From the IMG/VR virus record IMGVR_UViG_2706795432_000001, positions 11,029 to 75,028 of that record: DNA of 64,000 bases; one strand, given 5' to 3'. The notes beneath the pieces were generated by a model. The model did no database searches, had not been told where the DNA came from, and worked only from the letters and a program-made list of their open reading frames with translations. The DNA is from a virus (Duplodnaviria > Caudoviricetes). This document shows, in pieces, positions 5,049 through 63,361 of this stretch (positions are counted from its first letter, which is position 1; each line of letters begins with the position of its first letter). The translations under genes were made by a program, and so were the position numbers.

Positions 5049-6401
5049 ATGAGCAACGAATTCGAAAACCAAGACAATTCGTCTACGCTGGCGAATGATC
5101 TTTTCACAGCATTGACGACGGGGGTAACTATTCCCCCGTCGCCTGACTTTTCTGATCCAAAGTACGACTTCACTCCAGATACCGCCTCTGATCTTTATCA
5201 AGATGTGGTTGGAGCAACTATTGCTGAAGTGACAGCAGGTAAAAACACTCTCGAAGGAACAGGTGCATTCGATGTGTTCATGATTGCCATGGACAAACAC
5301 CTTGAGCGTGAGTTCAAAGGGAATCGAATCACTGGTTCACAGTATGCAGAGGTCTATACGGCTGTGGCCAATCAGGTGATGGGACAGGCAGTCTCCTTCA
5401 CCCTCCAGAAAGACCAAGCTCGCTGGCAAGCCATTACCGCACAGATGCAAGCCCGTATCGCTGAAATTCAGGCTACTGAAGCTCTCATTCGTCTTGAACA
5501 GACGAAGATTGAAGCTGCGAATGCGAACTTCCAACTGAACCTGACTGCTGCTCAGTATGCTCTGACGAAGATGCAGATTGCGACTGAAGAAGCACAGCAT
5601 GACAGTGTGACTGCTGATGTTGCCATCAAGCAATTCCAGCGGAACTATCAACAGCCTGCTGATCTGGCTATCACGCATTACGAACGTACTGCTGTGATGC
5701 CTTCCACTGTGGCTATGAATGAGTTCCAGACTGACCGGATCCTTCCGGCACAGGCAGCCATTGCTGAATACCAGAACCGTGTTCTTCAGCCTCTGGAAGC
5801 TGATATTCAGACGCTGCAACGTGATCGTATCATCCCAACTCAGGCTGATATCGAAGACTTCAAGCGTGACTCCATGCAGCCTGTGGAACTGGCACAGCAA
5901 CAGCACATCCTGAACCAACGGATGCCTCAAGAGACCGCCCTCATCAAAGAGCAGGTGGAAACTCAGCGTGCCAATACTCTGGAAACCCGGACTGATGGTT
6001 TGACCCCGGTACAAGGTGTCATTGCTCTTCAGAAACGGAACCTCATCGCTGATGCAGACATCAAGGACTACAACCTTGCCAATACTCTGCCTCGTCAGGT
6101 GGATCTGTTGGGTGAGCAGATCACCCTCACCACTGAACAAGGTGAAGCAGAACGTGCCAAAACTCTGGACACTCGTGCAGATGGTGCAACTGTTGAAGGT
6201 TCTGTTGGGAAACAGAAAGATCTGTACGATCAGCAGATCGACTCCTTCATCAAGGATGCTCAACACAAGACGGCCAAGATGTTCTTGGATTCGTGGATCA
6301 CCCGGAAAACTCTGGATATCGGTGTTCCGGTTCCTGCTGAGTTTTCTGAGACAACTGTTTCCAACGTGTTCAATAACGTCCGGACAAACAACAATATCTA
6401 A
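5049..6401 (+). CDS. N4 gp54-like tail structural protein
   Basis: GTGAFDVFM and C-terminal GSVGKQKDLYDQQIDSF motifs; helical with 15-aa repeats; synteny. Confidence 0.75.
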   Translation: MSNEFENQDNSSTLANDLFTALTTGVTIPPSPDFSDPKYDFTPDTASDLYQDVVGATIAEVTAGKNTLEGTGAFDVFMIAMDKHLEREFKGNRITGSQYAEVYTAVANQVMGQAVSFTLQKDQARWQAITAQMQARIAEIQATEALIRLEQTKIEAANANFQLNLTAAQYALTKMQIATEEAQHDSVTADVAIKQFQRNYQQPADLAITHYERTAVMPSTVAMNEFQTDRILPAQAAIAEYQNRVLQPLEADIQTLQRDRIIPTQADIEDFKRDSMQPVELAQQQHILNQRMPQETALIKEQVETQRANTLETRTDGLTPVQGVIALQKRNLIADADIKDYNLANTLPRQVDLLGEQITLTTEQGEAERAKTLDTRADGATVEGSVGKQKDLYDQQIDSFIKDAQHKTAKMFLDSWITRKTLDIGVPVPAEFSETTVSNVFNNVRTNNNI

Positions 6402-11728: not shown

Positions 11729-14700
11729 ATGTCTGAACGCGACGAAATTCTTGCAGCCGAATTGATTGCTCAACGTCTTCGGGATCCCAAATTCCAAGAA
11801 GAAGTCGCAGTCTCTCGTAACCGGGATACCGGAAACGAAGATGAACTCATTCAGGATATGCGAAACCTCAATGACTTGGAGATTCGTGCCAAGTACGGGG
11901 ATGAAGGTTATCTCGCTTCCATGGGTCAGTATTACACCTCGAATGAGGTGGATCAGATCAATGATCGTGAACGTACTACCCGTGAGAAATGGAGCGATAT
12001 TGCCACCAGTGCTGTGATGGCTCCCATTCGTTCAGGTGGAAACCTGTCTGGTATTGGTGCTGGTTTCTTGGTTGAGAAAATGACCGATGGTCAGATCTCC
12101 CGTGAACAAGCCACTGCTGACATTCTTTCGGCTCACAATACGGCTGTTGAGAATGTTCTTCAGGAAAACCTTTCTGAAACCATTCAAGATCGTCAGCGTC
12201 TGTTCCAGATCGAAGGTAAACTGGATTCCTTCGACAACTATGTGGAATACGAACGTGATCTGGCTGAAGGTGCAAACCCAACACTGGCTGAATGGCGTAT
12301 GGAAGGGAAGAACTTCATCGACTCTGCCAGCCGTGCTCTGAACAGCGGTGATGTCACTGCACAACTCATTGCTGAAGGTGTGGGTGATATGGCCCTGTCT
12401 GCACCTCTTGGTGGTGCTGCTGGTTTGGTTGTCAAAGGTCTTGGCCGTACTGCACTGGCAAGTGCTCTGACCACTCGTGTTGGTCGTGTCATGGGTCGTG
12501 TGGGTAAGGCTGGAGCCTATGCCTCTGGTGAAGTCGCTCTGGAAGTCTCTGGTGTGTATGCTGAGACTGTCCAAGATGTGATGGCAATGGAGAACTCCAC
12601 ACTTCTGGAAACCTCTTCGATCTATCGGGGACTGATCCAAGAAGGTCATTCGCCTTCTGAAGCCAAAGCCATTCTTGCAGGTATGACTGCTGAGACTGCT
12701 GCTATTCGTCAGGCTCCTGCATCTGTTGCCCTTGGTTTCCTCACCTCCAAGTTTGAAGCGATGCCAATTGGTTCGTTCCGTAACTCTGGTATTGCTGGTG
12801 GTCTTCTCACCATGGCTGGTGAAGGTATCGAAGAAGCAGGTCAGGGGATCTCTGGTAAGATCAACCAAAACATCGCTGTGGAAGAGTTTGCCAATATTGG
12901 TCGTCGTACTCTCGAAGGTGCAGGTGAAGAAGCTGCTCTGGGTGCAATTGCTGGTATCGGTACTGCTGGTGTCTTTGCGACTCCCAGTGCTCCTCGGAAT
13001 GTCCTGAGTGATGCTGGCAAAGCTCGTGATGCACTTCTGGACTTTGCTCTGGATGGAGCCACCGAATACAATGATCCTCTTCGTCAGAACATCATGGGTC
13101 GAGATAGTCGAGCACAGGAAGCTGCACGGGCTGCTACGGCTCTTGCTGTAGACTTCGGGACCAATGTGGGTCGTGGTGCTGCTGCCTTTGCAGGAGACGC
13201 TCTGAAGGCTGGTGAGGCCATTGGTTTGGATAAGGCTGCTCGTGCAACTGTTGATGCTGCTCGTGGGGCTACCCAGACGGCTGTGAACACCACTGCTGAA
13301 GCTGTGAACCGTGTGAATACTCGTGACGAACGTGCTCAGACTTCCAAGGAAGTGGAAGAAGCTGTGGCTGCTGCTCGTACTGTGGATGAGGAAATCCAAG
13401 CTGGTCAGGTGACTCCTGAAGTTGCTCAGAGTGTTAGCAATGAAGGCACTGCTCCTACTCCGAACCTGAGTGATACCGTTGGTTCGAACAAGATCGAGAC
13501 TGTGGCCAATATCATGGCCAAGGTTGGATCTCGTGCATTCAAACCAACTGTGGAAGACAAAGCCTTTGCTGCTGCTCAGATCAAATCTCTGGCTGGGGTT
13601 ATGAACTCTCTGCCTGCTAAGGCACGTCGTCAGGTAGCCAAACTGGTTACGTCGAAAGCTGCTCAGAACGTGGTCAAAGAAGCTGGTGAGATTGATCTCA
13701 ATAAGGAAGAGGTTTCGCCGGAAGCTGAAGTTTCCACAACCGTCAACGTGGCGAAGAGTAATCCGGCTAACGTGAATCCTGAGAAAACCAAGAAGATCTT
13801 GGAAGAGTCGGGTGAGATTATCTCCCCGGAGGATGCAAAGTATCTTCGCGTTGCTTCGAAAGTTGCTGGTACTATCAACAACTTGGTTGGGAATCTGGTG
13901 TCCATCCGTGAGACGGAGAACATTGGTCTCAAAGCGGACGATCAGGCCGAGAAGGAGAAGATCGACCCGACCGCCCGCAGCATCTATGTCGATGGCTATG
14001 TCAACGACAAGGGTGAGAAACTCCGGTCTATCAACGACTTTGCCTCGGACATTATCCAAGGTGCTCAGTCGCCAGACGGGACGATCATCAACCAGAAAAG
14101 AGAAGTGGTTCCTGTACGGTCTGTGGCTGAATCGTTCAACAAGATGGTTCAGCACATGAACAACCGTATTGGTGCATTAAACCAATCGTTTGATAGCAAT
14201 ACCCGTAACTCTCGGGGTAAACTGACTGCTGGCAAAGGGTTCCCCTTCCAAGGTCTTCGGAATGGTGAGACGTTTGTCGAACTGACAAGCCCTCTCTATC
14301 ACCGTGACAATCCTGCATCCGTGGCTCTGGCCAAACGGATTGCTGCTGAACGTGATGCCACTGTGGAGATCTATGAAGCTCTGCAAGCAGAGTTTCCTGA
14401 GATCTTTGATGGTTTGGTTCTTCCTGATCTGATCGAACTGAAAACAGAAGAAAACCAAACCCAACAACCAACGGGTATCGAGGAGTCTTCGACGCCCGAA
14501 GGCGGCGAAGTGACGAGCACCGAAACACAAACACAAGAAGAGAACGACAACCCAACGGCTGTCGAAGAGGAGACAAATTCTGAGGAAGGAGCAGACGAGA
14601 CCGGAGCGACCGCGACGGACGAGACTGTGACGACCGAAGAAATTGACTCCGATGAGCAAGCTCTCAATGAAGAAGAGATGTCTGATGAAGAGATCCGTGA

Positions 14701-17700
14701 TCTCATGGATACTCCTTCCAGTTGGGCTGAAGCTGATCGTGTACGGATCCAAGAACGTCAGAATCGTCTGGCTGGTGCTGCACGTCAGTATGTCTCTGAA
14801 ATGATGGGAGATTCTCTGAAGAAACGAATCCGTCAGCTTCGTATTTATCCTGAATCTTTGGGTCTTGGTCCGGGATATGCTCATGTCTCTGAGGATGGAA
14901 CCAAGAAGAAGATCTACCTGTCGGAAGCCATGTTCGATGAGAATGATCAACTGACTGCTGAAGGACGTGCTGTTCTTCTACATGAAGCTGCTCACATCGT
15001 AGACTTCACCAACAGTCCGAACTTGATCTCCCAGTCGAATTACTTCAACAAGACTGGGAAGATCATGAAAGAGTGGAATGCTCTGAACCCTGACTCCGAT
15101 TGGGCCAAGGGTCGTATGGAGTATGCCAACAGCTTCCGTGGTAGCGATGACAAACAACATCGTGCTGAAGTCTTTGCTGTTCTGACGGAATTCTACTATT
15201 CCAAGAATGAGTCGCTTCTTGCTGACTCCCCTGAAATCGTAGCCGAAATGGAGACCATCTATGGCACGAAAACCCAAGCAACTGGAACTTCCACTGACAG
15301 CACCACTTCCGAAGGGACAAGCTCCGAAACCGGAGGAACAACCGATACCACTGAAGGATCGACCTTTGACGCAGGACTCCGCCCCAACAGCGAATTCCTG
15401 AATGAAGTCTATCCTCGTGATGAGAATACGGATGCTCCGGCTGATCTAAATGAGGTGGCCCAAGTCATTGAAAACAATGGTGGTATCAATACCGTCACTG
15501 TGAACAAGATCGTCGAACTGGCTCCGAAACTGACGAACTTCATCAACAAGCGTCTTCGTCAGCGTAAGACCCAGATCGACGGTAAGACTCGTTCGATCCA
15601 CAAACATATCTTGGAAAATCCCCAAGGTCTGATGGCAGTCATGCAGTACAAATTCACTGCACTGGCTGATCCTGAGACTGGGGAGATGAACCAGAACATG
15701 ATGGAACTGGCCACTGTTGCGATGGTGGACTGGCTGACTGCTGCTTCCCAGTCGGATCCGAACCGTTTTAAGGATACTCTTGAGAAACAGGGTCTGTCGT
15801 TTGCTGATCTGAAGAGCGATGAACAGGCTCGGGATATGGCAATTGGTATTCCCCCGTCGTCTCTGAAACCTCAATTGGCTCGTGCCATTCTCGATATGTG
15901 GGGTGTGAAGCCCAACAAGAAATCCGCCATGGTGGACTACTATGGGATTGCTGAAGGTCTGGCTGCTGAGATGCTGCTGGGTCTGGAGGCTGAAGGATAT
16001 CTTGAGGTTAAGCGTATCGAACTGGCCAAGGTCATGTCTTCTGATGCAGAAACTGGGGACAAAGAGGTTCAGCATGTGAAGACTGACTCGATCATTCTCA
16101 ATCTGGAGAAGGTTCGGGAATTCCAGAATGAGGTTCGCTCCAACCGTCAGGATGGGGTTGCCAACACTGTGAAGGAATACTTCCTTGGGAAATCCCGTGA
16201 GATGTATTCCATCGGTGAGAAGATCCCGTTCAAAAAACGTGGTCGTCTGAGTGCTCGTGAGAACAAAGCTATTCGGACGATGCAGGATACTCCTCACTTC
16301 TACAACGAAGAACTCGGAAACCTCATGCTGGAGATCGGAGACGAAAACCTCATGCGTATCCTTGGTTTCGTCGAAGGTGTGAATGAAGAGACTGTTCCGA
16401 ATGCAACTCTGCGTCGTTCGATCCTTGGTAAGAACCTGTCGATTGAGAACAATCTTGCAGATGCAGGTATTCTGACCAGCCAAATCTCTCGTCAGGATCC
16501 GGTGTATTACCCGGTGGATGTGACTTCTGTGGGTCGTCACCAGTATCAAGGTGTGAACCCTCAGTCGAACAAATTCCTTCGTGCTCTGGTTACTCCAACT
16601 TGGACTACTGTGGATCTGGCAACTCAGGAAGATGCAGTATGGCTGGGTGTTGCTCAGGCTGCTGATCTGCACAAGATCGAGAAGAAGAACCACCAGAAGA
16701 TCCTGTCCACTGTACGGGATGACTTCGAGGCTCGGTATGGCGAAGCCAAGAACCAAGTCCTTGAAATGCTTCGTGGAAATGAATTTGACTCGGATACCTT
16801 CACTGCTTCTGCTCTTGGTTCAGAGACTGAGATTGAGCCTCAAGTTTTGGCAGCCATCTTCACTGTGGCAAAAATGCAACATGCCAAGGAGTCTGGACAA
16901 ACCAGCTTCGAATCCAGCCTGTCGGTTGAACTCGACGGTCTGACCAATGGTGCTGCAAACATGATGGTGAACTTTGCTCAGGGTCTTATGGAAGCCTCTG
17001 AGTGGGAGAACTTCAAGAAGATCGGCTTCTACATCGGGAAGGTTGGTCAGACGATCAACAACTACTTCGAGAAAGAAGGCAATCTCGATATGTACGAGAC
17101 TGTGGCACGTCTTGCTCAGGAGAAGATGGTTCGTGCCATGACCAAAGGAAAGATGCAGCGTGAGGCTGTTGCTGCTCATCGTTTTGCATCTCACTTCGGA
17201 GATCTGAAGAAGAACGAGAAAACCGGACAATTCGAAATGTCCCGTAACTCTGCCAAGAACCCCATGACTAAGGTGAACTATGGTTCTGGTGTTCTGGGTG
17301 TGGGTACTGGGATTGCAGATGATCTGATGATGGCATTTTTTGAAGCTCTTCATCAGAATGAACTGTCTGACATCGAATATGAAGGTGATCTGCGTGCTGA
17401 TCTGGAAGTGCTGGGTGTTCGTCTGCCAGAGAACCCTGCTGCAAGCTGGGAACCGACTGTGGCTGAGATGAAGGCATTCCGGTTCAATGTGGCACAGACT
17501 ATTGGTCAGGCTCTTACTGAGGCTGCCAAGGAAACTTTGGGCAACCGGATTACTGAAGTGAATGATCTCTTGGTTTTCTCGACCAATGTTCAGGCTGCCT
17601 ATCTCAATGAGATGTTTGAACAGAAGATGCTGGAATTGGGAGAACGACTGGCCAAAGAAGGTACGATCCGTCGTAACCCCAAAACCAACAAGCCTGTGAT

Positions 17701-20700
17701 GCGTGACATCCCGGTAGAAGAGTATGATCGTGTCGTGGCTGAACTGGAGTCCATGGCTCCTATCTTCACGTCTGATGAACAGACTCTGGAATTGGGTGGT
17801 TTCAAGGTGAAGATTGCAGATGACTGGCCTGTTCTGTCTGCTGCAATGGATGATCGACTGAACCAGAAACCTATGCTGAAACAACCTGATGACGTGGGTG
17901 TGAAGGCAATTCCGTTCACTGTCATTGGTACTGGTGATGCCATGATGATGAACCTGATCTTCGGTTCTGATGGTGCTCCGATGGATGTGCTGGGTGTGTT
18001 CGATGGTCTGGATGTGCCTGTGACAAAATTGCAACAGTATGCTCCGATGGTAAACCAGAGAGTCATGGAGACATGGGATCGTGATGTTCTGGCTATGGCT
18101 GTAGAGAACTTCCGTGGTTTCCTGAACAATGATCTTGACCAAGAAGCTCTGAAGCGTGCCTTTGCAACTGCCAAGGACAAGTCCAAGAAATCGACTGTCA
18201 CTGCGACCAGTAATGAAGAACTCATCCAGCAACTGGATATCCGTCTTCAGAACAACCGTGCCTTCAAAGCAATGTTGAAGAAGGTTCCGGTCTCTGTCGA
18301 TCAGATGGGTGGTTCCAACATTGGTTTCTCTCGTGGTGAGGGAAGTCTTGGTCTGAATGCTCTGAACGATATTGTACGTCGTGAACTGGAAGGAAAACCT
18401 GTTCAGACTGTGGAAGAAATCGACGAAGTGGATGTGAAAAACCCAGTCGAAGAAACCACTGTATCTGCTGTCATTCAGGGGATCCGTTGGAGTGAACAAC
18501 AGAAGAAGGTCATGGACATCATTCGTCCTGCTTTGGGTGATACTCGTGTTGTCTTCGGAACCATTGACCAACTGAACGTCTGGCGTCGTGAGAACGTCCC
18601 TGATGATGGTCTCGTGATGACTGCACCTGCTCAGTATGATCCAGTGAATGAGATCCTGTTCATGAGCAATGCTCGTCCTGAGACTATCCTTCATGAACTG
18701 GTTCATGCTGGGACATTCCAGAAGGTTCTGGACCATTACAATGGTCAAACCAATGAGGCTGTAACTCGTCTGGAAGATCTCATGGATGACTTCATGAACA
18801 TTAAGGATGGTGGTCAAAAGGTACGTGAGGCACAGGCTACGATTGCTCGTTACCGTCAGTCTACGGATCCGTTTACCAAAGCTGCTGCTGTGAATGAACT
18901 CATGGCATATGTTTTGGCCAATGCTGCTGTTCGGAAAAAGGCTCAGACAACGCAAGCCCAATCGCTTGCATCTATAGGAAGCAAGGTTATTCGCTTGATG
19001 CGTCGTCTGCTGGGTGGTGCTCCTGAGTCCATCTATGATGGTGTGGCGTTCAACACTCAGATGCTGATTGGTACTCCGATTGATGATTCCACTGGTGACG
19101 GTGGTAATGGTGATGGTGGTGGAGATAACGCAGGTGGTGAAATGACACCTCCAGCCAACAACTACACCAATTACTGGATCCGTCTGCTGGGGAACTACCT
19201 GAATGAGAATACTGATACTGTCACTCGTAATGTACGTCGTGATGAACAAGTCCGTGCTCGTGCATCAGTGAATCAGATTGTGGACTCTTTCCGTCAGGTG
19301 GGGATGCTTCAGAATCAAGAAGCCCGGATGACGTTCAAAGCCATCTACGGGGTAATCAATGCTGACATCCAGCTTCGGTCTCAGCCTTTGATCTCGATGA
19401 ACAAGATGTTTGATCACATCATCGAGAACATGACTCCGGAGATGTTTGGAGATGGTCAGGAAGCTGCACAGGAATACTCTGCTGTGCTCAATGCTTTCGG
19501 GAAAGACAATGACCAGATCAACTCGATCTCGGTTCTGTTGGCTCTGTCTCAGACTTCTTCCAAATTCCGTCAGGTGCTGGATCAAATCCCAGAACCGGAA
19601 ACTGGTGCAACTGGAACTCGTCTTCAGGATACCCTGACTGCTGTGGCTACCAAAACCATGGATACGATTACTGCTCGTGTACATGAGAATGGTGACGCCA
19701 AACAGGTGATGGATATGCTGGCTGCCACGATCATTGAACATGATCAGGATCGTGAATGGTTCATGCTTCAGAAAGTCACCAGTTCGCTGGATGCTGCTGA
19801 CAAGTATGTTGGTGGTCGGATGCAGGCTCTGGCTGAATTCATGCGTCGTACTGATCGTGAGACCCGTGAGAACAGCCGTTCGAAAGTGAAGAAATTCCTC
19901 ATTGGTTCTGTGACCATTGGGACCAATTACCTCGACAAGACTGGCTCTGATCTGAACAACCAAGGTCTGAAGAATCAATTCCACATGGGTATCCCGGTAC
20001 TCTCGATTGTTCCTGTCCGGGAATTGATCTCTGAAATTGTGGGTACGGATCGGTTCAATCAGAAAGTGGTGGCTCTTCAGGACAAGGTGAACCATGCCAT
20101 CTCTGGTATGCGTCAGGCTTATCGTGAAGATCTGCCGGGTATTCTGGCAAACCTGTTCCAAGAGAAACCTACCAAAACTCAGTGGAAAGCGATGTATAAC
20201 GTCATCGCTCAGACTGACTTTGTGTCGGTAATCGACCCGAACAACATTGCTCAGGGTATGCAGCTTCTGGCTGATCCTGCTGTTCGTTCTGCTCGTATCC
20301 GTCAACTGGAGACTGAACTGGATCGGAAACTGGTTCCGTATGTGTCTCAGGATGCCAAGGACAAAGCCGAACAACTGGCCAACTACATGACTGGTGGTGG
20401 TGTTGGAACTCTGCTGGTGCGAAATGCCTATGCAATCGCCAAGAACCTTGACGGTGAGTATGATGCTTCCTTGGTTCCGGTCTTGGATGAACTGATCTCG
20501 ATCTATGCCATCGACATGATGGATGCTGATCAACGTCAGGAAGTGCTGGATCTCTATGCTTCGGATCAAGAAGCCATGGAGCAGATCATCACGTATCTTC
20601 AGGGTCTGAATGAGGAAGAAGAGAACAAGCCAAACATCTCTGAGATGGCTCGTCTGAATGCGTATAAAGGCTTCATCCCGAATGAAGGAGCCAAGGATAC

Positions 20701-22396
20701 CCGTATCATCGTTGCAGATGATGCAGACGAACTGGATCTGAAACTAAAAGGCTATGTGAAACTGAAGCCCTACACTGGTGATCCCAGTAATGTGGTGGAT
20801 CGGTCCTATTACATCACCAACACTCGTACCGCTGGTATGTATGCTCAGGGGACCATGCAGAACGTGGCCTCGACCTATCGTGGTGTGGACGTAAACACGG
20901 GCCTCTCTCTGGGGAATGACACCACTGGTTTCATCTCTGGTGATGGTATCGTCGAACGGACCATGGAGCAGCTTCTGGACGCTGCCTACGTGCAAGAGAA
21001 CCCACAGGAAGGGTTTATGCCTGTCTTCGCTGAAGACGGGACTGTGATGGGCTTTGAGCGGTCTGTGAACCGTGAGATCGCTGATGAATTCCTTGGTCGT
21101 GAAGAGAACCTTGCAATCATGATGGGTGCATGGGCTGGTCGTCAGTTGGAAGAAACCACTGCCTATCAGTACAATGTGGCATTGATCGACGAACTGGATG
21201 CCATTTGGCAGAACCGGGAACGTGGATCCGAGAACCTCTTCGAGAACATGAAGGAAACCAAGGATCCAATCTATGCTGAGTCGTTCAAACTGATCCCGAA
21301 CAACATCAAATCCTACATCGACACCAAGTTTGATGGTCAGGGTCTGATGATTCGTAAGGATATGACGAACCTTGCTGTAGGTTATCGTGAGGCTTCTCTG
21401 GCGGATATGTGGTCTGGAAAGACTCGTATGCCCAAAGAAGTACAGAAAACCGTACAGGGTGTGACTCAGTTGTTCATGGGTCGGAATGCGATGAAGTGGG
21501 TCGTGAAGGTGGAAGATATCGGTCAAGGACTAATCTCCACTGCGAAAGACATCATTGTGATCCGGTCTCTGGTGGTTCCTGCTCTGAACATGCAAGCCAA
21601 CGTGGCACAGCTTGTGACCAACGGTGTTCCTCTGAAAACTCTGAAGAAGAGTATGCAGTCGAAATTGGCTGAAGTGGAACAGTACAATAAGAACGTCACG
21701 AAAATCATTGAACTGAAAGCGAAAATTCGTCTTCAGGCTCGTAACGCTAACCAGAAAAAGATCCTCTCGGACAAGATCAAAGCCATTGAGGATCTGAACA
21801 AGAAGATGACCATCGCTCCGATGATCGCAGCAGGTGCATACAAGCAACTGTCTGAGGGTATCACCGAATTCGATGAGAACATCATGTCTGGGAAGCTGGG
21901 TGATTACGTGGAAGCTCAAGTCGCAAAGCTGCCTTCTGGTGTTCGAACCATCGCTGAACATGGCATCGTGTCCAAATCAACGAAGATCTACCAGATCGCA
22001 AACCGTGCAACGCAGTATGGGGATTTCTTGGCGAAGTCTATTTACTACGACCACCTGCTTTCGCAGGGACTTGCACCTGATGTGGCTGTGGCTCGTATCA
22101 ACGAGGAGTTTGTGAACTTCTCCACACAGCCGGGTCGTGTCCGTTCTGCTCTGGAACGGAATGGTCTGTCTTGGTTCATGGCGTTCAAACTTCGGATCGC
22201 CAAGATTGCAATGCGTCAGATGAGGGATAACCCTGTCCGTGCATTGGCAGTGAATGCTGCCCTCGATGTGGGATCTCCAATCGAGGACAACATTTTCTCA
22301 GTCATGGCAGAAGGGCGTCTGGATTATGCAACTGGATATGAGATGCTGTTTGCAGCACCGGAACTGAACCCGTGGGTAAACCTGCTGAGTGATTAA
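11729..22396 (+). CDS. Virion-encapsidated RNA polymerase (N4 gp50-like vRNAP)
   Basis: 3555 aa, no Cys seen; DVTSVGR, motif A ELDGLTNG (D1736), motif B RNSAKNPMTKVNYG, motif C GVFDG (D2092). Confidence 0.97.
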   Translation: MSERDEILAAELIAQRLRDPKFQEEVAVSRNRDTGNEDELIQDMRNLNDLEIRAKYGDEGYLASMGQYYTSNEVDQINDRERTTREKWSDIATSAVMAPIRSGGNLSGIGAGFLVEKMTDGQISREQATADILSAHNTAVENVLQENLSETIQDRQRLFQIEGKLDSFDNYVEYERDLAEGANPTLAEWRMEGKNFIDSASRALNSGDVTAQLIAEGVGDMALSAPLGGAAGLVVKGLGRTALASALTTRVGRVMGRVGKAGAYASGEVALEVSGVYAETVQDVMAMENSTLLETSSIYRGLIQEGHSPSEAKAILAGMTAETAAIRQAPASVALGFLTSKFEAMPIGSFRNSGIAGGLLTMAGEGIEEAGQGISGKINQNIAVEEFANIGRRTLEGAGEEAALGAIAGIGTAGVFATPSAPRNVLSDAGKARDALLDFALDGATEYNDPLRQNIMGRDSRAQEAARAATALAVDFGTNVGRGAAAFAGDALKAGEAIGLDKAARATVDAARGATQTAVNTTAEAVNRVNTRDERAQTSKEVEEAVAAARTVDEEIQAGQVTPEVAQSVSNEGTAPTPNLSDTVGSNKIETVANIMAKVGSRAFKPTVEDKAFAAAQIKSLAGVMNSLPAKARRQVAKLVTSKAAQNVVKEAGEIDLNKEEVSPEAEVSTTVNVAKSNPANVNPEKTKKILEESGEIISPEDAKYLRVASKVAGTINNLVGNLVSIRETENIGLKADDQAEKEKIDPTARSIYVDGYVNDKGEKLRSINDFASDIIQGAQSPDGTIINQKREVVPVRSVAESFNKMVQHMNNRIGALNQSFDSNTRNSRGKLTAGKGFPFQGLRNGETFVELTSPLYHRDNPASVALAKRIAAERDATVEIYEALQAEFPEIFDGLVLPDLIELKTEENQTQQPTGIEESSTPEGGEVTSTETQTQEENDNPTAVEEETNSEEGADETGATATDETVTTEEIDSDEQALNEEEMSDEEIRDLMDTPSSWAEADRVRIQERQNRLAGAARQYVSEMMGDSLKKRIRQLRIYPESLGLGPGYAHVSEDGTKKKIYLSEAMFDENDQLTAEGRAVLLHEAAHIVDFTNSPNLISQSNYFNKTGKIMKEWNALNPDSDWAKGRMEYANSFRGSDDKQHRAEVFAVLTEFYYSKNESLLADSPEIVAEMETIYGTKTQATGTSTDSTTSEGTSSETGGTTDTTEGSTFDAGLRPNSEFLNEVYPRDENTDAPADLNEVAQVIENNGGINTVTVNKIVELAPKLTNFINKRLRQRKTQIDGKTRSIHKHILENPQGLMAVMQYKFTALADPETGEMNQNMMELATVAMVDWLTAASQSDPNRFKDTLEKQGLSFADLKSDEQARDMAIGIPPSSLKPQLARAILDMWGVKPNKKSAMVDYYGIAEGLAAEMLLGLEAEGYLEVKRIELAKVMSSDAETGDKEVQHVKTDSIILNLEKVREFQNEVRSNRQDGVANTVKEYFLGKSREMYSIGEKIPFKKRGRLSARENKAIRTMQDTPHFYNEELGNLMLEIGDENLMRILGFVEGVNEETVPNATLRRSILGKNLSIENNLADAGILTSQISRQDPVYYPVDVTSVGRHQYQGVNPQSNKFLRALVTPTWTTVDLATQEDAVWLGVAQAADLHKIEKKNHQKILSTVRDDFEARYGEAKNQVLEMLRGNEFDSDTFTASALGSETEIEPQVLAAIFTVAKMQHAKESGQTSFESSLSVELDGLTNGAANMMVNFAQGLMEASEWENFKKIGFYIGKVGQTINNYFEKEGNLDMYETVARLAQEKMVRAMTKGKMQREAVAAHRFASHFGDLKKNEKTGQFEMSRNSAKNPMTKVNYGSGVLGVGTGIADDLMMAFFEALHQNELSDIEYEGDLRADLEVLGVRLPENPAASWEPTVAEMKAFRFNVAQTIGQALTEAAKETLGNRITEVNDLLVFSTNVQAAYLNEMFEQKMLELGERLAKEGTIRRNPKTNKPVMRDIPVEEYDRVVAELESMAPIFTSDEQTLELGGFKVKIADDWPVLSAAMDDRLNQKPMLKQPDDVGVKAIPFTVIGTGDAMMMNLIFGSDGAPMDVLGVFDGLDVPVTKLQQYAPMVNQRVMETWDRDVLAMAVENFRGFLNNDLDQEALKRAFATAKDKSKKSTVTATSNEELIQQLDIRLQNNRAFKAMLKKVPVSVDQMGGSNIGFSRGEGSLGLNALNDIVRRELEGKPVQTVEEIDEVDVKNPVEETTVSAVIQGIRWSEQQKKVMDIIRPALGDTRVVFGTIDQLNVWRRENVPDDGLVMTAPAQYDPVNEILFMSNARPETILHELVHAGTFQKVLDHYNGQTNEAVTRLEDLMDDFMNIKDGGQKVREAQATIARYRQSTDPFTKAAAVNELMAYVLANAAVRKKAQTTQAQSLASIGSKVIRLMRRLLGGAPESIYDGVAFNTQMLIGTPIDDSTGDGGNGDGGGDNAGGEMTPPANNYTNYWIRLLGNYLNENTDTVTRNVRRDEQVRARASVNQIVDSFRQVGMLQNQEARMTFKAIYGVINADIQLRSQPLISMNKMFDHIIENMTPEMFGDGQEAAQEYSAVLNAFGKDNDQINSISVLLALSQTSSKFRQVLDQIPEPETGATGTRLQDTLTAVATKTMDTITARVHENGDAKQVMDMLAATIIEHDQDREWFMLQKVTSSLDAADKYVGGRMQALAEFMRRTDRETRENSRSKVKKFLIGSVTIGTNYLDKTGSDLNNQGLKNQFHMGIPVLSIVPVRELISEIVGTDRFNQKVVALQDKVNHAISGMRQAYREDLPGILANLFQEKPTKTQWKAMYNVIAQTDFVSVIDPNNIAQGMQLLADPAVRSARIRQLETELDRKLVPYVSQDAKDKAEQLANYMTGGGVGTLLVRNAYAIAKNLDGEYDASLVPVLDELISIYAIDMMDADQRQEVLDLYASDQEAMEQIITYLQGLNEEEENKPNISEMARLNAYKGFIPNEGAKDTRIIVADDADELDLKLKGYVKLKPYTGDPSNVVDRSYYITNTRTAGMYAQGTMQNVASTYRGVDVNTGLSLGNDTTGFISGDGIVERTMEQLLDAAYVQENPQEGFMPVFAEDGTVMGFERSVNREIADEFLGREENLAIMMGAWAGRQLEETTAYQYNVALIDELDAIWQNRERGSENLFENMKETKDPIYAESFKLIPNNIKSYIDTKFDGQGLMIRKDMTNLAVGYREASLADMWSGKTRMPKEVQKTVQGVTQLFMGRNAMKWVVKVEDIGQGLISTAKDIIVIRSLVVPALNMQANVAQLVTNGVPLKTLKKSMQSKLAEVEQYNKNVTKIIELKAKIRLQARNANQKKILSDKIKAIEDLNKKMTIAPMIAAGAYKQLSEGITEFDENIMSGKLGDYVEAQVAKLPSGVRTIAEHGIVSKSTKIYQIANRATQYGDFLAKSIYYDHLLSQGLAPDVAVARINEEFVNFSTQPGRVRSALERNGLSWFMAFKLRIAKIAMRQMRDNPVRALAVNAALDVGSPIEDNIFSVMAEGRLDYATGYEMLFAAPELNPWVNLLSD

Positions 22397-59080: not shown

Positions 59081-59401
59081 TTAGTTGAACAGACCGGAAG
59101 CCATCGACTTCACGTTCTGTGATTTCATTTGGTTCACCTCTTCAGTGAGTCTTTCCACCTGACGTTTGAGGGCTTGGAAGTCAGGTGTGTCTTCGATCAA
59201 CTCACGGATGGTCTCAGGAGGTTTACGGTCCCCATTCACGAATGGGAGCCACTCCTGTTCGAAGAAGTCTTTGGCTTCTTTCAGACCCTCACCACTCAAA
59301 GAACGAATATGCTTGATGCAGTTGATCTTTTTGGAGTTCACATACTCAGGGTTCATGAGTTCACGAAGAGCTTTCAGTGGGAAGTATAGATGATCACCCA
59401 T
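59081..59401 (-). CDS. Ribosomal protein bL12 (L7/L12) C-terminal-domain-like protein
   Basis: KKINCIKHIRSLSGEGLKEAKDFFE resembles the bL12 CTD motif K.I.VIK.VR...GLGLKEAKD.VE. Confidence 0.7.
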   Translation of the reverse strand: MGDHLYFPLKALRELMNPEYVNSKKINCIKHIRSLSGEGLKEAKDFFEQEWLPFVNGDRKPPETIRELIEDTPDFQALKRQVERLTEEVNQMKSQNVKSMASGLFN

Positions 59402-60185
59402 TGACCTTTTCCTTCTTGGCCAGTTCCAGCACAGCTTTGTTGTAGTCTGTGCCTTGAGAGTTGATGTGATAGCCTACAGCATAGCTGCGACCACGACGGT
59501 CATATTTGTGGGTGAGCCAGAACTCATTGCCCAGTGTGTGCATCCCACGCATGACATCGAGAGATGTCTCATAGAACACTTGAGCCTGTTTCTGACGTTT
59601 CTGGAATTCTTCGAATCCTTCACCCACTTTTCTCTTCGGGATGATCATATGACCTTCAGCCGAAGCGATCACATCCATGTTCAGTGTCAGTGCCACTGAG
59701 TTCATGCGGTTGATGTGATCGAGACAGACATCTTCTTCATCGAAGACATCAGATCCATTCAGGACGATACGACCTTTCCGGTCGAAGTACCCAGATCCCA
59801 TATGATTGTCTTTGACCTTGTTGGGTCTCACCACCATGGGCAATGGGAACTGGTAACGTGCAAGCATGTCTTCCACGTCCTGAGTGATCTCGTACTTCAT
59901 GATGAAGCGTTTGCTCTCCATGTCGAAGTCGAGGAGATCTTCTTCCACTGCTTCTTTCAGCATCTCTGCCACATCCTGTGGTTCTCCCCACTTGGGGCTG
60001 AACAGTCCCACCATGGTAGGAATGTCAGCCTGTTTGTGCAGGTAGATCTGACAGAGTACATCCACTTTGAATGGATCCTCAGACAGAGGTGAGAACTGAT
60101 CACGCAGGACATCCATCAGTTGGTTCCGGTTGAACAGTTCTTCGAGGTTCTTCTGTGCCTCAATCATGTTGGTATGCTCGGTCAT
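59394..60185 (-). CDS. RNA polymerase II subunit 1 (N4 gp15-like)
   Basis: CLDHINRMNSVALTLN; THKYDRRGRSYAVGYHINSQGTDYNKA. Confidence 0.92.
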   Translation of the reverse strand: MTEHTNMIEAQKNLEELFNRNQLMDVLRDQFSPLSEDPFKVDVLCQIYLHKQADIPTMVGLFSPKWGEPQDVAEMLKEAVEEDLLDFDMESKRFIMKYEITQDVEDMLARYQFPLPMVVRPNKVKDNHMGSGYFDRKGRIVLNGSDVFDEEDVCLDHINRMNSVALTLNMDVIASAEGHMIIPKRKVGEGFEEFQKRQKQAQVFYETSLDVMRGMHTLGNEFWLTHKYDRRGRSYAVGYHINSQGTDYNKAVLELAKKEKVNG

Positions 60186-60640
60186 TTGATATCACTCCTG
60201 ATGTTCATGAGCAGTTTCCCGAGGATGTTGTCACCCACGAGTTTTCCTTTGCTGTCCTTGATCTGACCCCAATAGGTGTCACCCCAAGTGTTGAATTCGA
60301 TGATGTCACGGCTGCCAGTGTCCTTGAGCTTTTGTGCAAGATCTGGATGAGTCATGAACTTCGCACGCAGCACCAGTTCCATGATCTCCAGCTTCACGAA
60401 GTCCCAGTCATGACGCAGGATCACATTGCGACCCTGTTTCTTTGCTTGTGCTCCAGTGAGGTGTTTGAACTGTTCACGGTGCTGGATGTTGATGGTCTTG
60501 GCTGCCTGATAGGCTGCTTCAGTGTTGTCATACTCGAAGCCCGTGACAGTGATTGGTGCATGGTAAAAGTTACTCAGCCACCGATACTCGTCACGAAAAC
60601 CCATGATAGGTTTCTGTGCAGTTTCTAGGACGTTTGTCAT
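60182..60640 (-). CDS. NADAR (YbiA-like) ADP-ribosylhydrolase family protein
   Basis: WLSNFY, TEAAYQAAK, AKFMTHPDL..L..TG, DTYWG, GDNILGKLLMNIR. Confidence 0.9.
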   Translation of the reverse strand: MTNVLETAQKPIMGFRDEYRWLSNFYHAPITVTGFEYDNTEAAYQAAKTINIQHREQFKHLTGAQAKKQGRNVILRHDWDFVKLEIMELVLRAKFMTHPDLAQKLKDTGSRDIIEFNTWGDTYWGQIKDSKGKLVGDNILGKLLMNIRSDIK

Positions 60641-60727
60641 AGGTTTACGCTCCAGTTATGTTTCTGTTTGGTTTAGTCATTTCGACCATAAAAGTTGAAC
60701 TTCACTTTTCAGTCATGGCCGACAGGC

Positions 60728-60745
60728 CAAAAGGACCAACGGGAC
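60728..60745 (-). promoter_or_regulatory. Candidate vRNAP hairpin promoter P4
   Basis: Template (+): C-AAAA-GGACC-AAC-GGGAC; predicted +1 G at 60728. Confidence 0.7.
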
Positions 60746-60879
60746 GCAGAGTCAGTCATTCAGGGCTGTCTGATGTGTGTCGTATAGGTCACAGATTCAG
60801 GTCTATCTGTGCCATATTTGTCACCAACTTCCTGAACTTTTTAGGTTTCAGTCAAGTTGATGAGTTGAACTTAGTGGTG

Positions 60880-60930
60880 AAAAAGAAATTCCCCTCCCAG
60901 CAGGCTCTGTGAAGAGTGCTGAGAGAGGAA
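60880..60930 (-). terminator. Strong terminator upstream of P4
   Basis: Minus strand TTCCTCTCTCAGCA-CTCT-TCAC-AGAG-CC-TGCTGGGAGGGGAA-TTTCTTTTT. Confidence 0.75.
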
Positions 60931-61024
60931 CATATGACTGCTGTTGGGTGTCAGGACCAGTCACATCGTCCTTAGCACCTTTTCGGCGTGCGCTCCGCTT
61001 CAAGTTTGCAACCTTGAAGTAGTA

Positions 61025-61052
61025 TCCCGACCCACTGAAGAGTGGGCCGGGA
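61025..61052 (-). other. Hairpin just after gp2 stop
   Basis: TCCCG-A-CCCACT-GAAG-AGTGGG-C-CGGGA. Confidence 0.6.
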
Positions 61053-61057
61053 ATGGG

Positions 61058-61477
61058 TTAAGCGAAGAGCTTCGCTTTGAGATCACTCTCATCCGCAGTC
61101 GGAATCGGAGCGGCTGCAACCTGCTCCTGACGACGGTAGAGTTGCACCGAGAGGTTGACGGGTTTGGACTCGCCTTCCTCCAGTTCGAGGCCAGCTTCAC
61201 GGATCATGTTCATGATCTGGTTGACCAGCGTCGCCTCTTCGGCCCATTCGGGATTCCGTTCAGCCGAGTTGGCGTACAGACGGTGATCCTGAAGATCGCT
61301 CACCGCAATGCCACGAGGCAGACGGTTGAACTTCTCGACGACGTTGCCTTCGCCGTCTTCTTCTTCGGTGATCACACCGACGTTGATCCAGATGCCAGCG
61401 AATTCGTCCTCATCGGCTTTGGCCACCGAGGTACGAGTGTTTGCAGGCTTGCGGTTGGTTGCGAGTTTGAATGCCAT
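61058..61477 (-). CDS. N4 gp2-like ssDNA-binding activator of middle transcription
   Basis: WINVG, RLPRGI, LSVQLYRR pattern as recalled for N4 gp2; AAGGAG RBS; early position. Confidence 0.75.
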   Translation of the reverse strand: MAFKLATNRKPANTRTSVAKADEDEFAGIWINVGVITEEEDGEGNVVEKFNRLPRGIAVSDLQDHRLYANSAERNPEWAEEATLVNQIMNMIREAGLELEEGESKPVNLSVQLYRRQEQVAAAPIPTADESDLKAKLFA

Positions 61478-61531
61478 GAGAGTTTCTCCTTCATTTCATA
61501 GCTATTGACGACGATGACACCATGTCACCGC

Positions 61532-61552
61532 CAAAACGACCAACGGGAGTTT
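61532..61552 (-). promoter_or_regulatory. Candidate vRNAP hairpin promoter P3
   Basis: Template (+): C-AAAA-CGACC-AAC-GGGAG-TTT; predicted +1 G at 61532. Confidence 0.75.
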
Positions 61553-61645
61553 CTCAACATTTGAGTCATCCTGATGATCCGAGAAAAGAGAGTAGTAGAT
61601 GCGTCAGCATCCAGTTCCTCTTGGCTCACCAATGGTGGGAACCGT

Positions 61646-61885
61646 TCAGACTTCATTGTACGGTCTCCATTCAGTGGTACTGAAGTGTTTAATGAACTCC
61701 ACCAACACTGAACGCTTGATAGCAAGCTCATGCAGACGCTCAGTGTTGTCGATGATATCCTGTGGCTCCATCTTCTTCTCTGTAGAGAGGTAGTACAGGA
61801 TATCAGTCATCTCTTCGTCGATGGATTTCAGTGCTGTCACTGAATCAAAGTTTCTCGGTGCAGTTTTCTTAGGGAAACGGATCAT
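61646..61885 (-). CDS. Early hypothetical protein
   Basis: AGGAG RBS before MIRFPKK. Confidence 0.6.
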   Translation of the reverse strand: MIRFPKKTAPRNFDSVTALKSIDEEMTDILYYLSTEKKMEPQDIIDNTERLHELAIKRSVLVEFIKHFSTTEWRPYNEV

Positions 61886-61901
61886 TGTAAGTATCTCCTG
61901 T

Positions 61902-62150
61902 TTAGGTTTGATCAGATTTAAGAAGTTCCAGTTCATCGAGGTGGTTTACAACCTCATTTCGCACCAATGATTCATGAGGTGTTTTCGATGCAAAAGGTCT
62001 GGTGAGTTTGATTTCGTCACCAACTCCTGTGGTGATGTTTGTCCAGACGATCATCTGGAAGTGGCAAAGAAAGGATGCACGGAAACGATGTTCTCCGATT
62101 TCGAAAGTGTAGTCTGTGCATCCTTGTTCGATGTTATGGACGTTGCTCAT
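61902..62150 (-). CDS. Early hypothetical protein
   Basis: GGAG RBS; 82 aa. Confidence 0.6.
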   Translation of the reverse strand: MSNVHNIEQGCTDYTFEIGEHRFRASFLCHFQMIVWTNITTGVGDEIKLTRPFASKTPHESLVRNEVVNHLDELELLKSDQT

Positions 62151-62274
62151 GGAGTTTCTCCACTTGGTTCAGTTGCATGGTGAGTTGATGGTCAATTGCA
62201 GTCTCGACCATAGGGAAAAAGAGACTGATCAGCAGAATGCTGACCAGCCCCAAGAAGAGGTATTGGTGGATCAT
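62134..62274 (-). CDS. 46-aa early protein with N-terminal TM helix (not in track)
   Basis: GGAGGAG RBS; MIHQYLFLGLVSILLISLFFPMVETAIDHQ.. Confidence 0.55.
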   Translation of the reverse strand: MIHQYLFLGLVSILLISLFFPMVETAIDHQLTMQLNQVEKLHEQRP

Positions 62275-62516
62275 TGATGATCTCCTCCAGTGTAGAAGCA
62301 GTCACAGTCCACTGCATATTTCAGGGACATGACCTCTTCGATCATCCCAAGCTGTTCACACATATCTTCCATTTCGGAGATGAGTTCATCTTGGTATCCC
62401 TGTTCTGCATCATCAGGGTCGATCATGTTGTCACAAGCAGTGATGTCACTCATGAGTTGAGAGTGAATCTGTGCCAGAGTGCGGTTGTCGGTCAGTTTCG
62501 AAACTTGAATGGACAT
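62271..62516 (-). CDS. Early acidic hypothetical protein
   Basis: AAGGAG RBS before MSIQVSK, 35 nt downstream of P2. Confidence 0.65.
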   Translation of the reverse strand: MSIQVSKLTDNRTLAQIHSQLMSDITACDNMIDPDDAEQGYQDELISEMEDMCEQLGMIEEVMSLKYAVDCDCFYTGGDHQ

Positions 62517-62550
62517 GAGGTATTTCTCCTTGGTTTGAGTTGAATTGGTT

Positions 62551-62569
62551 CGATACGACCAACGGGAGT
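62551..62569 (-). promoter_or_regulatory. Candidate vRNAP hairpin promoter P2
   Basis: Template (+): C-GATA-CGACC-AAC-GGGAG-T; predicted +1 G at 62551. Confidence 0.75.
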
Positions 62570-62712
62570 TTGCCAAAAGTTCGCTGCGCTCACACCACGC
62601 TTCGCTTAGGTGGTCAGTCTTTAGGGAAACTTCAGTCATCTACGTGTGTAGATTCGGTCTATCTGGGGAACGGTTACGCCTCCCCACTCGGTTGAGTGGA
62701 GAGACGCAGTTG

Positions 62713-62970
62713 TTACTTGTCGAACTCAGCTTCGAGTTCAGCGTAGAGGGCAGCATATGCCTCGTCGGTATTCAGTTTCTCACGGATGGGTGCGAGGGTT
62801 TCAGTAAGTGAGTCGATGACAAGCTGACGATCACTGATCTTCTGTGCCTTGGCCCTGTTGTCCACATATGTGGTGGCCATAGAGACGCTTTGTCCTACGG
62901 ACTCTACCACCTCAGTACCGATGTCGAAGGTGGTGGAAACGAAACGCTGTGCGGATTTGAACATGCCCAT
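62713..62970 (-). CDS. First early gene (N4 gp1-like position)
   Basis: AGGAG RBS before MGMFKSAQRF, 31 nt downstream of P1. Confidence 0.65.
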   Translation of the reverse strand: MGMFKSAQRFVSTTFDIGTEVVESVGQSVSMATTYVDNRAKAQKISDRQLVIDSLTETLAPIREKLNTDEAYAALYAELEAEFDK

Positions 62971-63000
62971 GATATATCTCCTATGCTGGGTTGATGGATC

Positions 63001-63019
63001 CAGTACGAGCAACGCGAGT
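63001..63019 (-). promoter_or_regulatory. Candidate vRNAP hairpin promoter P1
   Basis: Template (+): C-AGTA-CGAGC-AAC-GCGAG-T; predicted +1 G at 63001. Confidence 0.75.
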
Positions 63020-63361
63020 GGATGAGCTAGGAGTGTACGTATGAGGGGATGCGTGTACCTATGAAATATGGGGGGGTATCAATGTGTGTAGATTGAAGAC
63101 CGGGGGGGTGGGTTGACATAGGAGTGTAGTCACCACCAAACCCCTCCACCCTCGACAATATGTGCAAAATCATCAATGAAAATTTTTGCATACGGTGTAG
63201 CGTATAAAGGGCAAATATACGCTCCAGAGTATGAATTGGTGACATGGTTTTTTCTGAACTTCAGGAAAACTCATGCCTTAAACCTGCGAACAATCTCCGG
63301 AGCGAGGGTAGCTCTAAACCCATACAGAGATTGTGTTCGTGTCTATCAAAAGAACCTATTG

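Follow-up and report, generated by a model that had tools for sequence, protein, structure and literature searches.

AAC-loop hairpins with tandem G·A stem steps as candidate virion RNA polymerase promoters in a Dinoroseobacter N4-like phage

Four short sites in front of the early genes of a marine Dinoroseobacter N4-like phage (Baltimorevirus, R1/R2C type) are very likely early promoters of the injected virion RNA polymerase (vRNAP), which, judged from the sequences of the sites and of their relatives, would read them through a hairpin with an AAC loop and G·A mismatches in the stem. The vRNAP of phage N4 is the textbook example of DNA-hairpin recognition by a polymerase, and the rules derived for it (perfect stem, G-N-A loop, -10G and -8G) come from this single phage.

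Four template-strand sites ahead of the early genes

The window, i.e. the whole stretch of 64 kb that was analysed, carries the early genes on the minus strand, and therefore the plus strand is the template strand for the four sites (Table 1). The sequence-only reading had listed four strings on this strand, and all of them were recovered exactly as claimed when the positions were read again. Their described placement was also confirmed, since each of the four is intergenic and located 31-88 nt before an early gene on the template strand; the gene downstream of P4 is the head of the RNAP1 operon. Scanning the window for the motif SGASC-AAC-GSGAS (search pattern SGASCAACGSGAS) in comparison to 100 shuffles returned four matches, all on the plus strand, where 0.03 were expected, and none of the shuffles reached four. 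In the remaining 57 kb of the window SGASCAACGSGAS was not found, and within the early region the four sites are the strongest repeat family.

Table 1. Positions of the candidate promoters and associated features in the window
Feature	Position	Strand	Composition or product	Context
P1	63001..63018	+	+1 C (63001), spacer AGTA, arm CGAGC, loop AAC, arm GCGAG	31 nt before orf1
P2	62551..62568	+	+1 C (62551), spacer GATA, arm CGACC, loop AAC, arm GGGAG	35 nt before 81-aa early gene
P3	61532..61549	+	+1 C (61532), spacer AAAA, arm CGACC, loop AAC, arm GGGAG	55 nt before gp2-like gene
P4	60728..60745	+	+1 C (60728), spacer AAAA, arm GGACC, loop AAC, arm GGGAC	88 nt before 152-aa gene
orf1	62713..62970	-	conserved first early gene, 85 aa, phrog_14155	downstream of P1
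gp2-like gene	61058..61477	-	N4 gp2-like early gene, 139 aa	downstream of P3
152-aa gene and RNAP1	59394..60640	-	RNAP1: N4 gp15-like subunit of the middle RNA polymerase	downstream of P4
Terminator-like hairpin	61580..61612	-	GGATGC-TGAC-GCATC and T-run	ends unit upstream of P3
vRNAP gene	11729..22396	+	virion RNA polymerase, 3555 aa	presumed reader of P1-P4
Specificity loop codons	17849..17869	+	DDRLNQK of vRNAP	aligned with N4 D900-P906 (DDRMRVP)

The pair exchanges described earlier are present in the window as well: P4 differs from P1-P3 in its outer pair (G:C in place of C:G), P1 from P2-P4 in its fourth pair (likewise G:C in place of C:G), and the two middle stem positions are 5'-GA/3'-AG in all four sites. 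An alternative register of P1, CGAG-CAA-CGCG with one A·G, does not fit P2-P4 and was ruled out. The mismatches are purine-purine on the template strand only, while the opposite strand would have C·T and T·C. One alternative is that the structure works in RNA, e.g. in the leader or at the 3' end of early transcripts, instead of in template-strand DNA. Read-through from upstream units would indeed transcribe the motif, but the RNA copy CUCCC-GUU-GGUCG has C·U and U·C mismatches and is unstable, and the hairpin would lie upstream of the transcript if this starts at the predicted +1, which makes such a role extremely improbable. An Rfam search of the sites returned no family match and nothing relevant.

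We also consider it very unlikely that the sites are no vRNAP promoters at all, but bind some other protein of phage or host (regulatory, or involved in replication or packaging) or are signals for RNAPII or the host RNA polymerase. Geometry, +1 C, spacer and slot agree with the N4-type vRNAP promoters of relatives, and the motif is restricted to the early end of the window, although the transcription starts at the sites are predicted, and other conserved elements with no assigned role are found nearby, e.g. GGTCTATCTG. One site precedes the operon encoding RNAPII and another its cofactor-like gp2 gene; RNAPII cannot be required for the expression of these genes. Sigma-70-like sites show no enrichment (4 found versus 5.2 expected) and were rejected as early promoters. 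The sole candidate for a canonical perfect hairpin with GNA loop, CAGCA-GAA-TGCTG at 62231-62243, was likewise rejected: its loop is closed by an A:T pair, and it lies within a small ORF and overlaps a terminator-like site on the coding strand. The terminator-like hairpin upstream of P3 is also kept in sister genera, so that each unit has the terminator first and the promoter second.

Hairpin forms and covariation in relatives

In 13 genomes hairpins begin 31-41 nt upstream of orf1, and the gp2-like gene and the RNAP1 operon are likewise preceded by matching sites. Perfect GGA/GAA hairpins occupy these slots in R7L, DS-1410Ws-06, AX, EE36phi1, DSS3phi2, L010 and L030, GNNA-tetraloop hairpins in RPP1 and L047, and G·A-stem hairpins in V13, phiCB2047-B, RD-1410W1-01, L008, L044, L049 and L050, and all forms share one alignment column. 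The claim that the sites are vRNAP promoters is supported by this comparison, as they have the N4 geometry and occupy slots orthologous to canonical hairpins of sister genera. Copies with AAC loop occur at the same slots in two independent metagenomic lineages (L048 and L051; RNAP1 76-78% identical), where one copy reads TGACC-AAC-GGGAA with T:A as the outer pair.

The sequence-only reading had further proposed a previously unrecognised promoter code. Its G·A stem is no peculiarity of the phage of the window: at least seven further lineages combine such a stem with ordinary GGA/GAA/GCA loops. The genome L044 has a promoter of either type, one with a G·A stem and one with a perfect stem, and the G·A step may therefore be a tolerated stem equivalent and not a separate 'code'. 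The AAC loop, which is no GNA loop, is the new and truly unusual part in the phage of the window.

For the stem, the reading as a mismatch-containing hairpin gains support from the covariation of the pairs on either side of the G·A step. A first covariation count (alignment A2) was partly circular, because its rows had been picked with a pairing filter, and was replaced by a pattern that imposed no complementarity across the sites of the window and its relatives. This pattern gave 33 matches versus 4.0 expected, 27 of them on template strands of early regions. Positions -8/-14 are Watson-Crick in 25 of the 27 early-region sites (G:C, C:G, A:T) and positions -5/-17 in 21 (G:C, C:G, T:A), where 25% would be expected by chance; for the remaining six matches this holds for 2/6 at -8/-14 and 2/6 at -5/-17.

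Folding energies in a nearest-neighbour DNA model with five pairs are +1.8 to +2.6 kcal/mol for the window sites and -2.4 to -5.0 kcal/mol for N4 and perfect-stem relatives, calculated with a parameter set that scores tandem G·A like any other internal loop, has no specific G·A or GNA-loop term, returns identical energies for both strands and is uninformative on the G·A-stem question. The favoured context of tandem G·A is pyrimidine-GA-purine, which is present on both arms in P1 only (CGAG/CGAG). Among DNA mismatches, tandem GA/AG stands out for its stability (PMC8163305), and at the sites it has the 5'-GA-3'/3'-AG-5' orientation and is placed between Watson-Crick pairs. In a screen of GCNNNGC oligomers, very stable mini-hairpins were formed from GNA loops only (PMC13037366), and the P1 core GC-AAC-GC should therefore be ordinary.

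The energies, together with an outer pair that is not Watson-Crick in 6/27 sites and the invariance of G, A, G and A, as expected of base-specific contacts, would suit vRNAP promoters with a minimal two-pair hairpin or none, in which these four bases are contacted single-stranded and the outer 'pair' is non-structural. This is unlikely in view of the three pair types at -5/-17 and the covariation at -8/-14, both far above the chance level; moreover, the equivalent positions in sister genera are ordinary, variable Watson-Crick pairs, and 5'-GA/3'-AG is the exact orientation of the stable tandem mismatch (PMC8163305).

The vRNAP specificity loop and a proposed mode of recognition

The vRNAP of the window is clearly homologous to N4 mini-vRNAP (E 5e-51). 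In the specificity loop N4 R904, which contacts -8G, aligns with N, and a 'QK' is found in six of six G·A-stem genomes and in none of seven perfect-only genomes, so that all 13 Rhodovirinae genomes are concordant. In L033, a distant G·A-stem genome, 'QK' was not seen. A quick vRNAP tree with SH-aLRT support only places V13 (QK) as sister to Sanyabayvirus (no QK), and the correlation of 'QK' with the G·A stem rests on about two independent changes. The prediction that the recognition residues differ from those of N4 holds in part, namely for the exchange of R904 to N and the class-specific 'QK'. For the N4 -11 element (K114, R119, W129) the alignment to the roseophage enzymes is unreliable; the only lead on it, from this same alignment, is VMQYK in the window versus F-[RK]-x-[FY]-[KR] in relatives with GNA or GNNA loops.

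We propose that each site forms a small DNA hairpin on its template strand, in which the AAC triloop would be closed by two C:G/G:C pairs, followed by the tandem 5'-GA/3'-AG step and one outer Watson-Crick pair. The step most likely consists of sheared G·A pairs and would substitute for two ordinary stem pairs. As in N4, vRNAP would bind the hairpin and start the RNA with a G templated by the C, which four purine-rich bases separate from the 5' side of the stem, while its altered specificity loop probably reads, or at least accommodates, the G·A step. Since AAC would take the place of the G-N-A mini-hairpin loop, loop recognition must then differ from N4. More tentatively, the roseophage vRNAP clade may have re-specified its recognition, with the G·A step read via the 'QK' loop and, in Baltimorevirus-type lineages, the AAC loop in addition; polymerase and promoter would then form a co-evolving code on single-stranded DNA with several mutually distinct dialects within a group of close relatives, a possibility that we hold to be somewhat doubtful.

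In the literature searched, no description of G·A-stem hairpin promoters in marine Schitoviridae was found, the AAC-loop form included. A comparative-genomics paper on roseophages reported that RPP1/RLP1 yielded no promoter consensus (PMC4193335), and promoters are unmentioned in the other roseophage genome papers checked. The present comparison gives predicted early promoters to the whole subfamily. At orthologous slots close relatives have at least four hairpin dialects, and the specificity loop is a short polymerase stretch that changes with the dialect. This provides a natural variant set for testing how hairpin shape and mismatches get read, as well as a better annotation of early transcription units in marine N4-like phages.

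Comparison with known hairpin promoters

A control scan found the three known N4 promoters (C-ATAA-GTTGC-GAA-GCAAC, C-AAAA-GAAGC-GGA-GCTTC and C-AAAA-GCTGC-GGA-GCAGC) in the same layout of +1 C, 4-nt spacer and 5+3+5, and the N4 P2 sequence quoted in the sequence-only reading, CC-AAAA-GAAGC-GGA-GCTTC, proved correct (L018 position 571). With N4 P1-P3, which are read by the vRNAP gp50, and the N4 promoter requirements as given in a review (PMC4496689), the window sites share the position on the template strand before early genes at the first-entering genome end, and a homologous, gp50-like giant virion RNAP is encoded. All four sites have the +1 C with a purine-rich 4-nt spacer ('molecular ruler'), arms of 5 nt and a loop of 3 nt whose central base is a purine at -11 (the A of AAC), and the loop is closed by the -9C:-13G pair, which is invariant across the 27 sites. 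Transcripts predicted from P3 and P4 start with a stem at +1, like those from the mapped N4 P1 and P2. Unlike N4, with its Watson-Crick stem of 5-7 bp, the window sites have three Watson-Crick pairs and the invariant tandem G·A at -6/-16 and -7/-15. N4 extrusion and binding need -10G and the sheared pair -10G:-12A (PMC4496689), both of which are lacking in the AAC loop with A at -10 and C at -12. The -8G contacted by R904 in N4 is present in P1 only, whereas P2-P4 have C, and the counterpart of R904 is N.

The loops of N4 and most relatives are accounted for by the mini-hairpins GCGNAGC / GCGNNAGC (PMC13037366), which contain a sheared G·A in a G...A loop closed by C:G, and this family also covers the GTTA, GACA and GTAA tetraloop promoters of RPP1, L046 and L047. 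The AAC loop falls outside of it, and the window sites have G·A pairs in the stem only.

Also close to the window sites are the G·A-stem promoters with GNA loop of other marine Schitoviridae (V13, phiCB2047-B, RD-1410W1-01 and several metagenomic contigs), which have the same S-GA-N-C / G-N'-GA-S' stem. They share the slots and the 'QK' signature of the specificity loop with the window, but retain a canonical GGA, GAA or GCA loop (core GCGAAGC and similar), whereas the window, L048 and L051 have AAC. In the N4-like Pseudomonas phage LUZ7, ONT-cappable-seq placed the early starts at a constant spacing from a small hairpin whose loop has 3 nt, with G as the preferred start and with tandem promoters present (PMC9163698). 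The LUZ7 stems were reported to be ordinary, of at least 4 bp, and the starts are measured, while in the window the stems are mismatched and the starts are predicted only.

The four sites and the promoter dialects of Rhodovirinae

At its right end the window matches Dinoroseobacter phage vBDshPR2C (Schitoviridae, Rhodovirinae, Baltimorevirus) with 97% identity, in reverse orientation. The four hairpin strings of the sequence-only reading (P1-P4; +1 C, 4-nt spacer, two 5-nt arms with two G·A mismatches, AAC loop) were re-read in the window exactly as reported. SGASCAACGSGAS occurs four times, on the + (template) strand only, versus 0.03 expected, and ranks first among early-region repeat families. 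L045 (PDWI01000352.1), a 74,410-bp metagenome contig, represents a near-identical phage with 98% identity in RNAP1, the gp15-like subunit of the second polymerase (RNAPII); it carries P1, P3 and P4, while ~560 bp with P2 and its small genes are missing.

A template-strand scan (C, 4-nt spacer, 5-nt arm, 3-nt loop, 5-nt arm), which as a control finds all three N4 promoters, was run on further Rhodovirinae and on contigs retrieved by RNAP1 alignment, and revealed four promoter dialects. Dialect a (R7L, DS-1410Ws-06, AX, EE36phi1, DSS3phi2, L010, L028 and L030) has perfect 5-bp stems and a GGA or GAA loop. Dialect b combines perfect stems with GNNA tetraloops in RPP1 (GTTA) and in contigs L046 and L047 (GACA, GTCA and GTAA across both); for RPP1/RLP1, Chan et al. 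report being unable to identify a promoter consensus (PMC4193335). Dialect c has stems of the form S-GA-N-C / G-N'-GA-S' with GGA, GAA or GCA loops (V13, phiCB2047-B, RD-1410W1-01, L008, L044, L049, L050 and the distant contigs L033 and L037, RNAP1 only ~40% identical). Dialect d joins this stem to the AAC loop in the window, R2C, L045 and two independent metagenomic lineages, L048 (RNAP1 78% identical) and L051 (76%). Since in L044 a G·A-stem promoter precedes orf1 and a perfect-stem one the gp2-like gene, a single enzyme can probably use both.

Features and their coordinates (L003-L051, comparison genomes and contigs)
Feature	Sequence	Position	Strand	Remark
Early genes	window	57-63 kb	-	
vRNAP gene	window	11729-22396		3555 aa; matches N4 mini-vRNAP structures, E 5e-51
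Polymerase domain	window	14576-18328	+	
P1, putative +1 C	window	63001	+	31 nt ahead of orf1 start codon
P2, putative +1 C	window	62551	+	35 nt ahead of start codon, 81-aa gene
P3, putative +1 C	window	61532	+	55 nt ahead of gp2-like gene start codon
P4, putative +1 C	window	60728	+	88 nt ahead of start codon, 152-aa gene (first in RNAP1 operon)
N4 promoters	L018 (N4)	102, 571, 4560	template	
GNNA sites in promoter slots, perfect 5-bp stems	L005 (RPP1-type)	~1060-1080, ~370-390		loops of all GNNA sites: GTTA, GACA, GTCA, GTAA
GNNA sites	L046	297		
GNNA sites	L047	2816, 4215, 4885		
GGTCTATCTG	window	60800-60809, 62656-62665	+	also L005, L008, L010, L013, L016, L017, L028, L030
Hairpin with GGTCTATCTG	window	60790-60811		
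Predicted +1 stem-loop, P3	window	61508-61532	+	
Predicted +1 stem-loop, P4	window	60717-60728	+	
GGAGTGTA	window	63030-63037, 63121-63128	+	repeat region 63020-63130
Terminator-like hairpin, T-run	window	62221-62251	-	
CGAGCAACGCGAG	L003	2111-2123	template	
CGAGCAACGCGAG	L004	2601-2613	template	
CGAGCAACGCGAG	L028	~5895-5910	template	

Orthologous slots and the polymerase

Slots were located by tblastn with the window's orf1, gp2-like, 152-aa and RNAP1 proteins, and in every lineage each hairpin precedes the orthologous gene. The distance from +1 to orf1 is 31-41 nt in 13 genomes; to the 152-aa gene it is 87-88 nt, in the window as in L045, L048 and L051. Upstream of the gp2-like gene one alignment column holds all dialects, in the order conserved terminator-like hairpin with T-run, promoter hairpin, invariant spacer and +1. 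Mainly because the dialects share orthologous slots and this column, the comparison supports the window's four sites as vRNAP promoters. RNAPII might read the motif instead, but one site, lying ahead of that polymerase's own genes, cannot be attributed to it. The earlier proposal that vRNAP reads mismatch hairpins is supported, by comparison, through N4 geometry, slots and pair covariation. The full-text literature search found no account of roseophage vRNAP promoters or mismatch-containing vRNAP hairpins, and the evidence supports a hitherto undescribed variant, in the literature searched, of the N4-type hairpin promoter; the window contributes the AAC loop, together with its recurrence in L048 and L051.

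Recognition residues had also been expected to differ from N4. The specificity loop aligns well by both phmmer and MAFFT and reads DDRMRVP in N4 versus DDRLNQK in the window; the expectation holds for R904 (contacting -8G in N4), which is replaced by N, and not for D901 (-9C/-10G), which is retained. The replacement fits the C at -8 in three of the four window sites. N4 positions 905-906 are QK in the window, V13, phiCB2047-B, RD-1410W1-01, L008 and L044, where G·A-stem promoters are present, and DF (DS-1410Ws-06, AX), TP (R7L, DSS3phi2, RPP1) or QP (L010, L030) where only perfect stems are. A quick vRNAP tree places the G·A class as basal and paraphyletic, with V13 sister to Sanyabayvirus, so that the suggestive association of QK with G·A stems spans about two independent changes; it is not seen in the distant G·A-stem contig L033. 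Near the N4 -11 recognition element, a low-confidence alignment gives VMQYK in the window versus F/L-R/K-x-F/Y-K/R in all GNA-/GNNA-loop relatives, which may serve as a lead only. Between Rhodovirinae genera, identity is 32-41% for the polymerase domain (window versus L019-L026) and 68-82% for RNAP1; judged by identity, the promoter-reading vRNAP evolves much faster than the remaining early module.

Elements beside the promoters

In most Rhodovirinae, irrespective of dialect, the template strand carries the 10-mer GGTCTATCTG at 30-100 nt upstream of the promoter of the RNAP1 operon. The window's copy there makes up the loop and the 3' arm of a small hairpin, CACAGAT-TCAGGTCT-ATCTGTG; a second copy lies upstream of P2. 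The predicted P3 and P4 transcripts have a stem-loop starting exactly at +1 (P4, GGCC-UGUC-GGCC), those of L048 and L051 read GGCCG-UUC/UUU-CGGCC with compensatory changes, and predicted +1 stems also occur in L002 and L014; the experimentally known P1 and P2 transcripts of N4 (L018) likewise start with one. As template DNA, these are GNA or GNNA hairpins abutting +1. In roseophages (L002, L008, L010, L013, L015, L017, L028) and in N4 (gtgtaacgtgta), short GTGTA-type repeats directly precede the first of the early promoters, and may be an element tied to the genome end. The terminator-like hairpin of the table lies within a 46-aa early-region ORF; its + strand reads C-TGAT-CAGCA-GAA-TGCTG, the sole GNA hairpin of the early region that looks canonical.

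Pairing across the G·A step and comparison with N4

An initial covariation count was set aside, as its rows were pairing-filtered. The pattern C-N4-N-GA-N-C-(GNA or AAC)-G-N-GA-N, with N unconstrained, gave 33 matches versus 4.0 expected in 844 kb of non-redundant sequence (both strands), 27 on early-region template strands and six elsewhere. Among the 27, the fourth pair (-8/-14) is Watson-Crick in 25 (G:C 15, C:G 7, A:T 3) and the outer pair (-5/-17) in 21 (G:C 12, C:G 8, T:A 1); elsewhere it is two of six at each, the chance rate being 25%. This excess indicates that pairing is kept on both sides of the invariant 5'-GA/3'-AG step, the orientation of a well-known stable DNA tandem mismatch (PMC8163305). 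Only on the template strand are the mismatches purine-purine. Standard DNA nearest-neighbour parameters, a set without terms for these motifs, do not favour the fold of the window sites, which calls for caution.

The P1-identical 13-mer CGAGC-AAC-GCGAG (CGAGCAACGCGAG) is found in Aorunvirus-type phages and L028 just downstream of the perfect RNAP1 promoter with its GGA loop, whose +1 it overlaps; it may represent a second promoter in tandem, a hairpin that competes, or a relic. In other genera this slot is filled by a perfect hairpin with a GAA or GACA loop (R7L, TCGCG-GAA-CGCGA), a further hint that a hairpin spans the G·A step.

The loop calls for caution as well. In GCNNNGC oligomers, extra stability comes from GNA loops only (PMC13037366). 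N4 extrusion and binding need -10G and the sheared -10G:-12A pair (PMC4496689), whereas the AAC loop of the window has neither.
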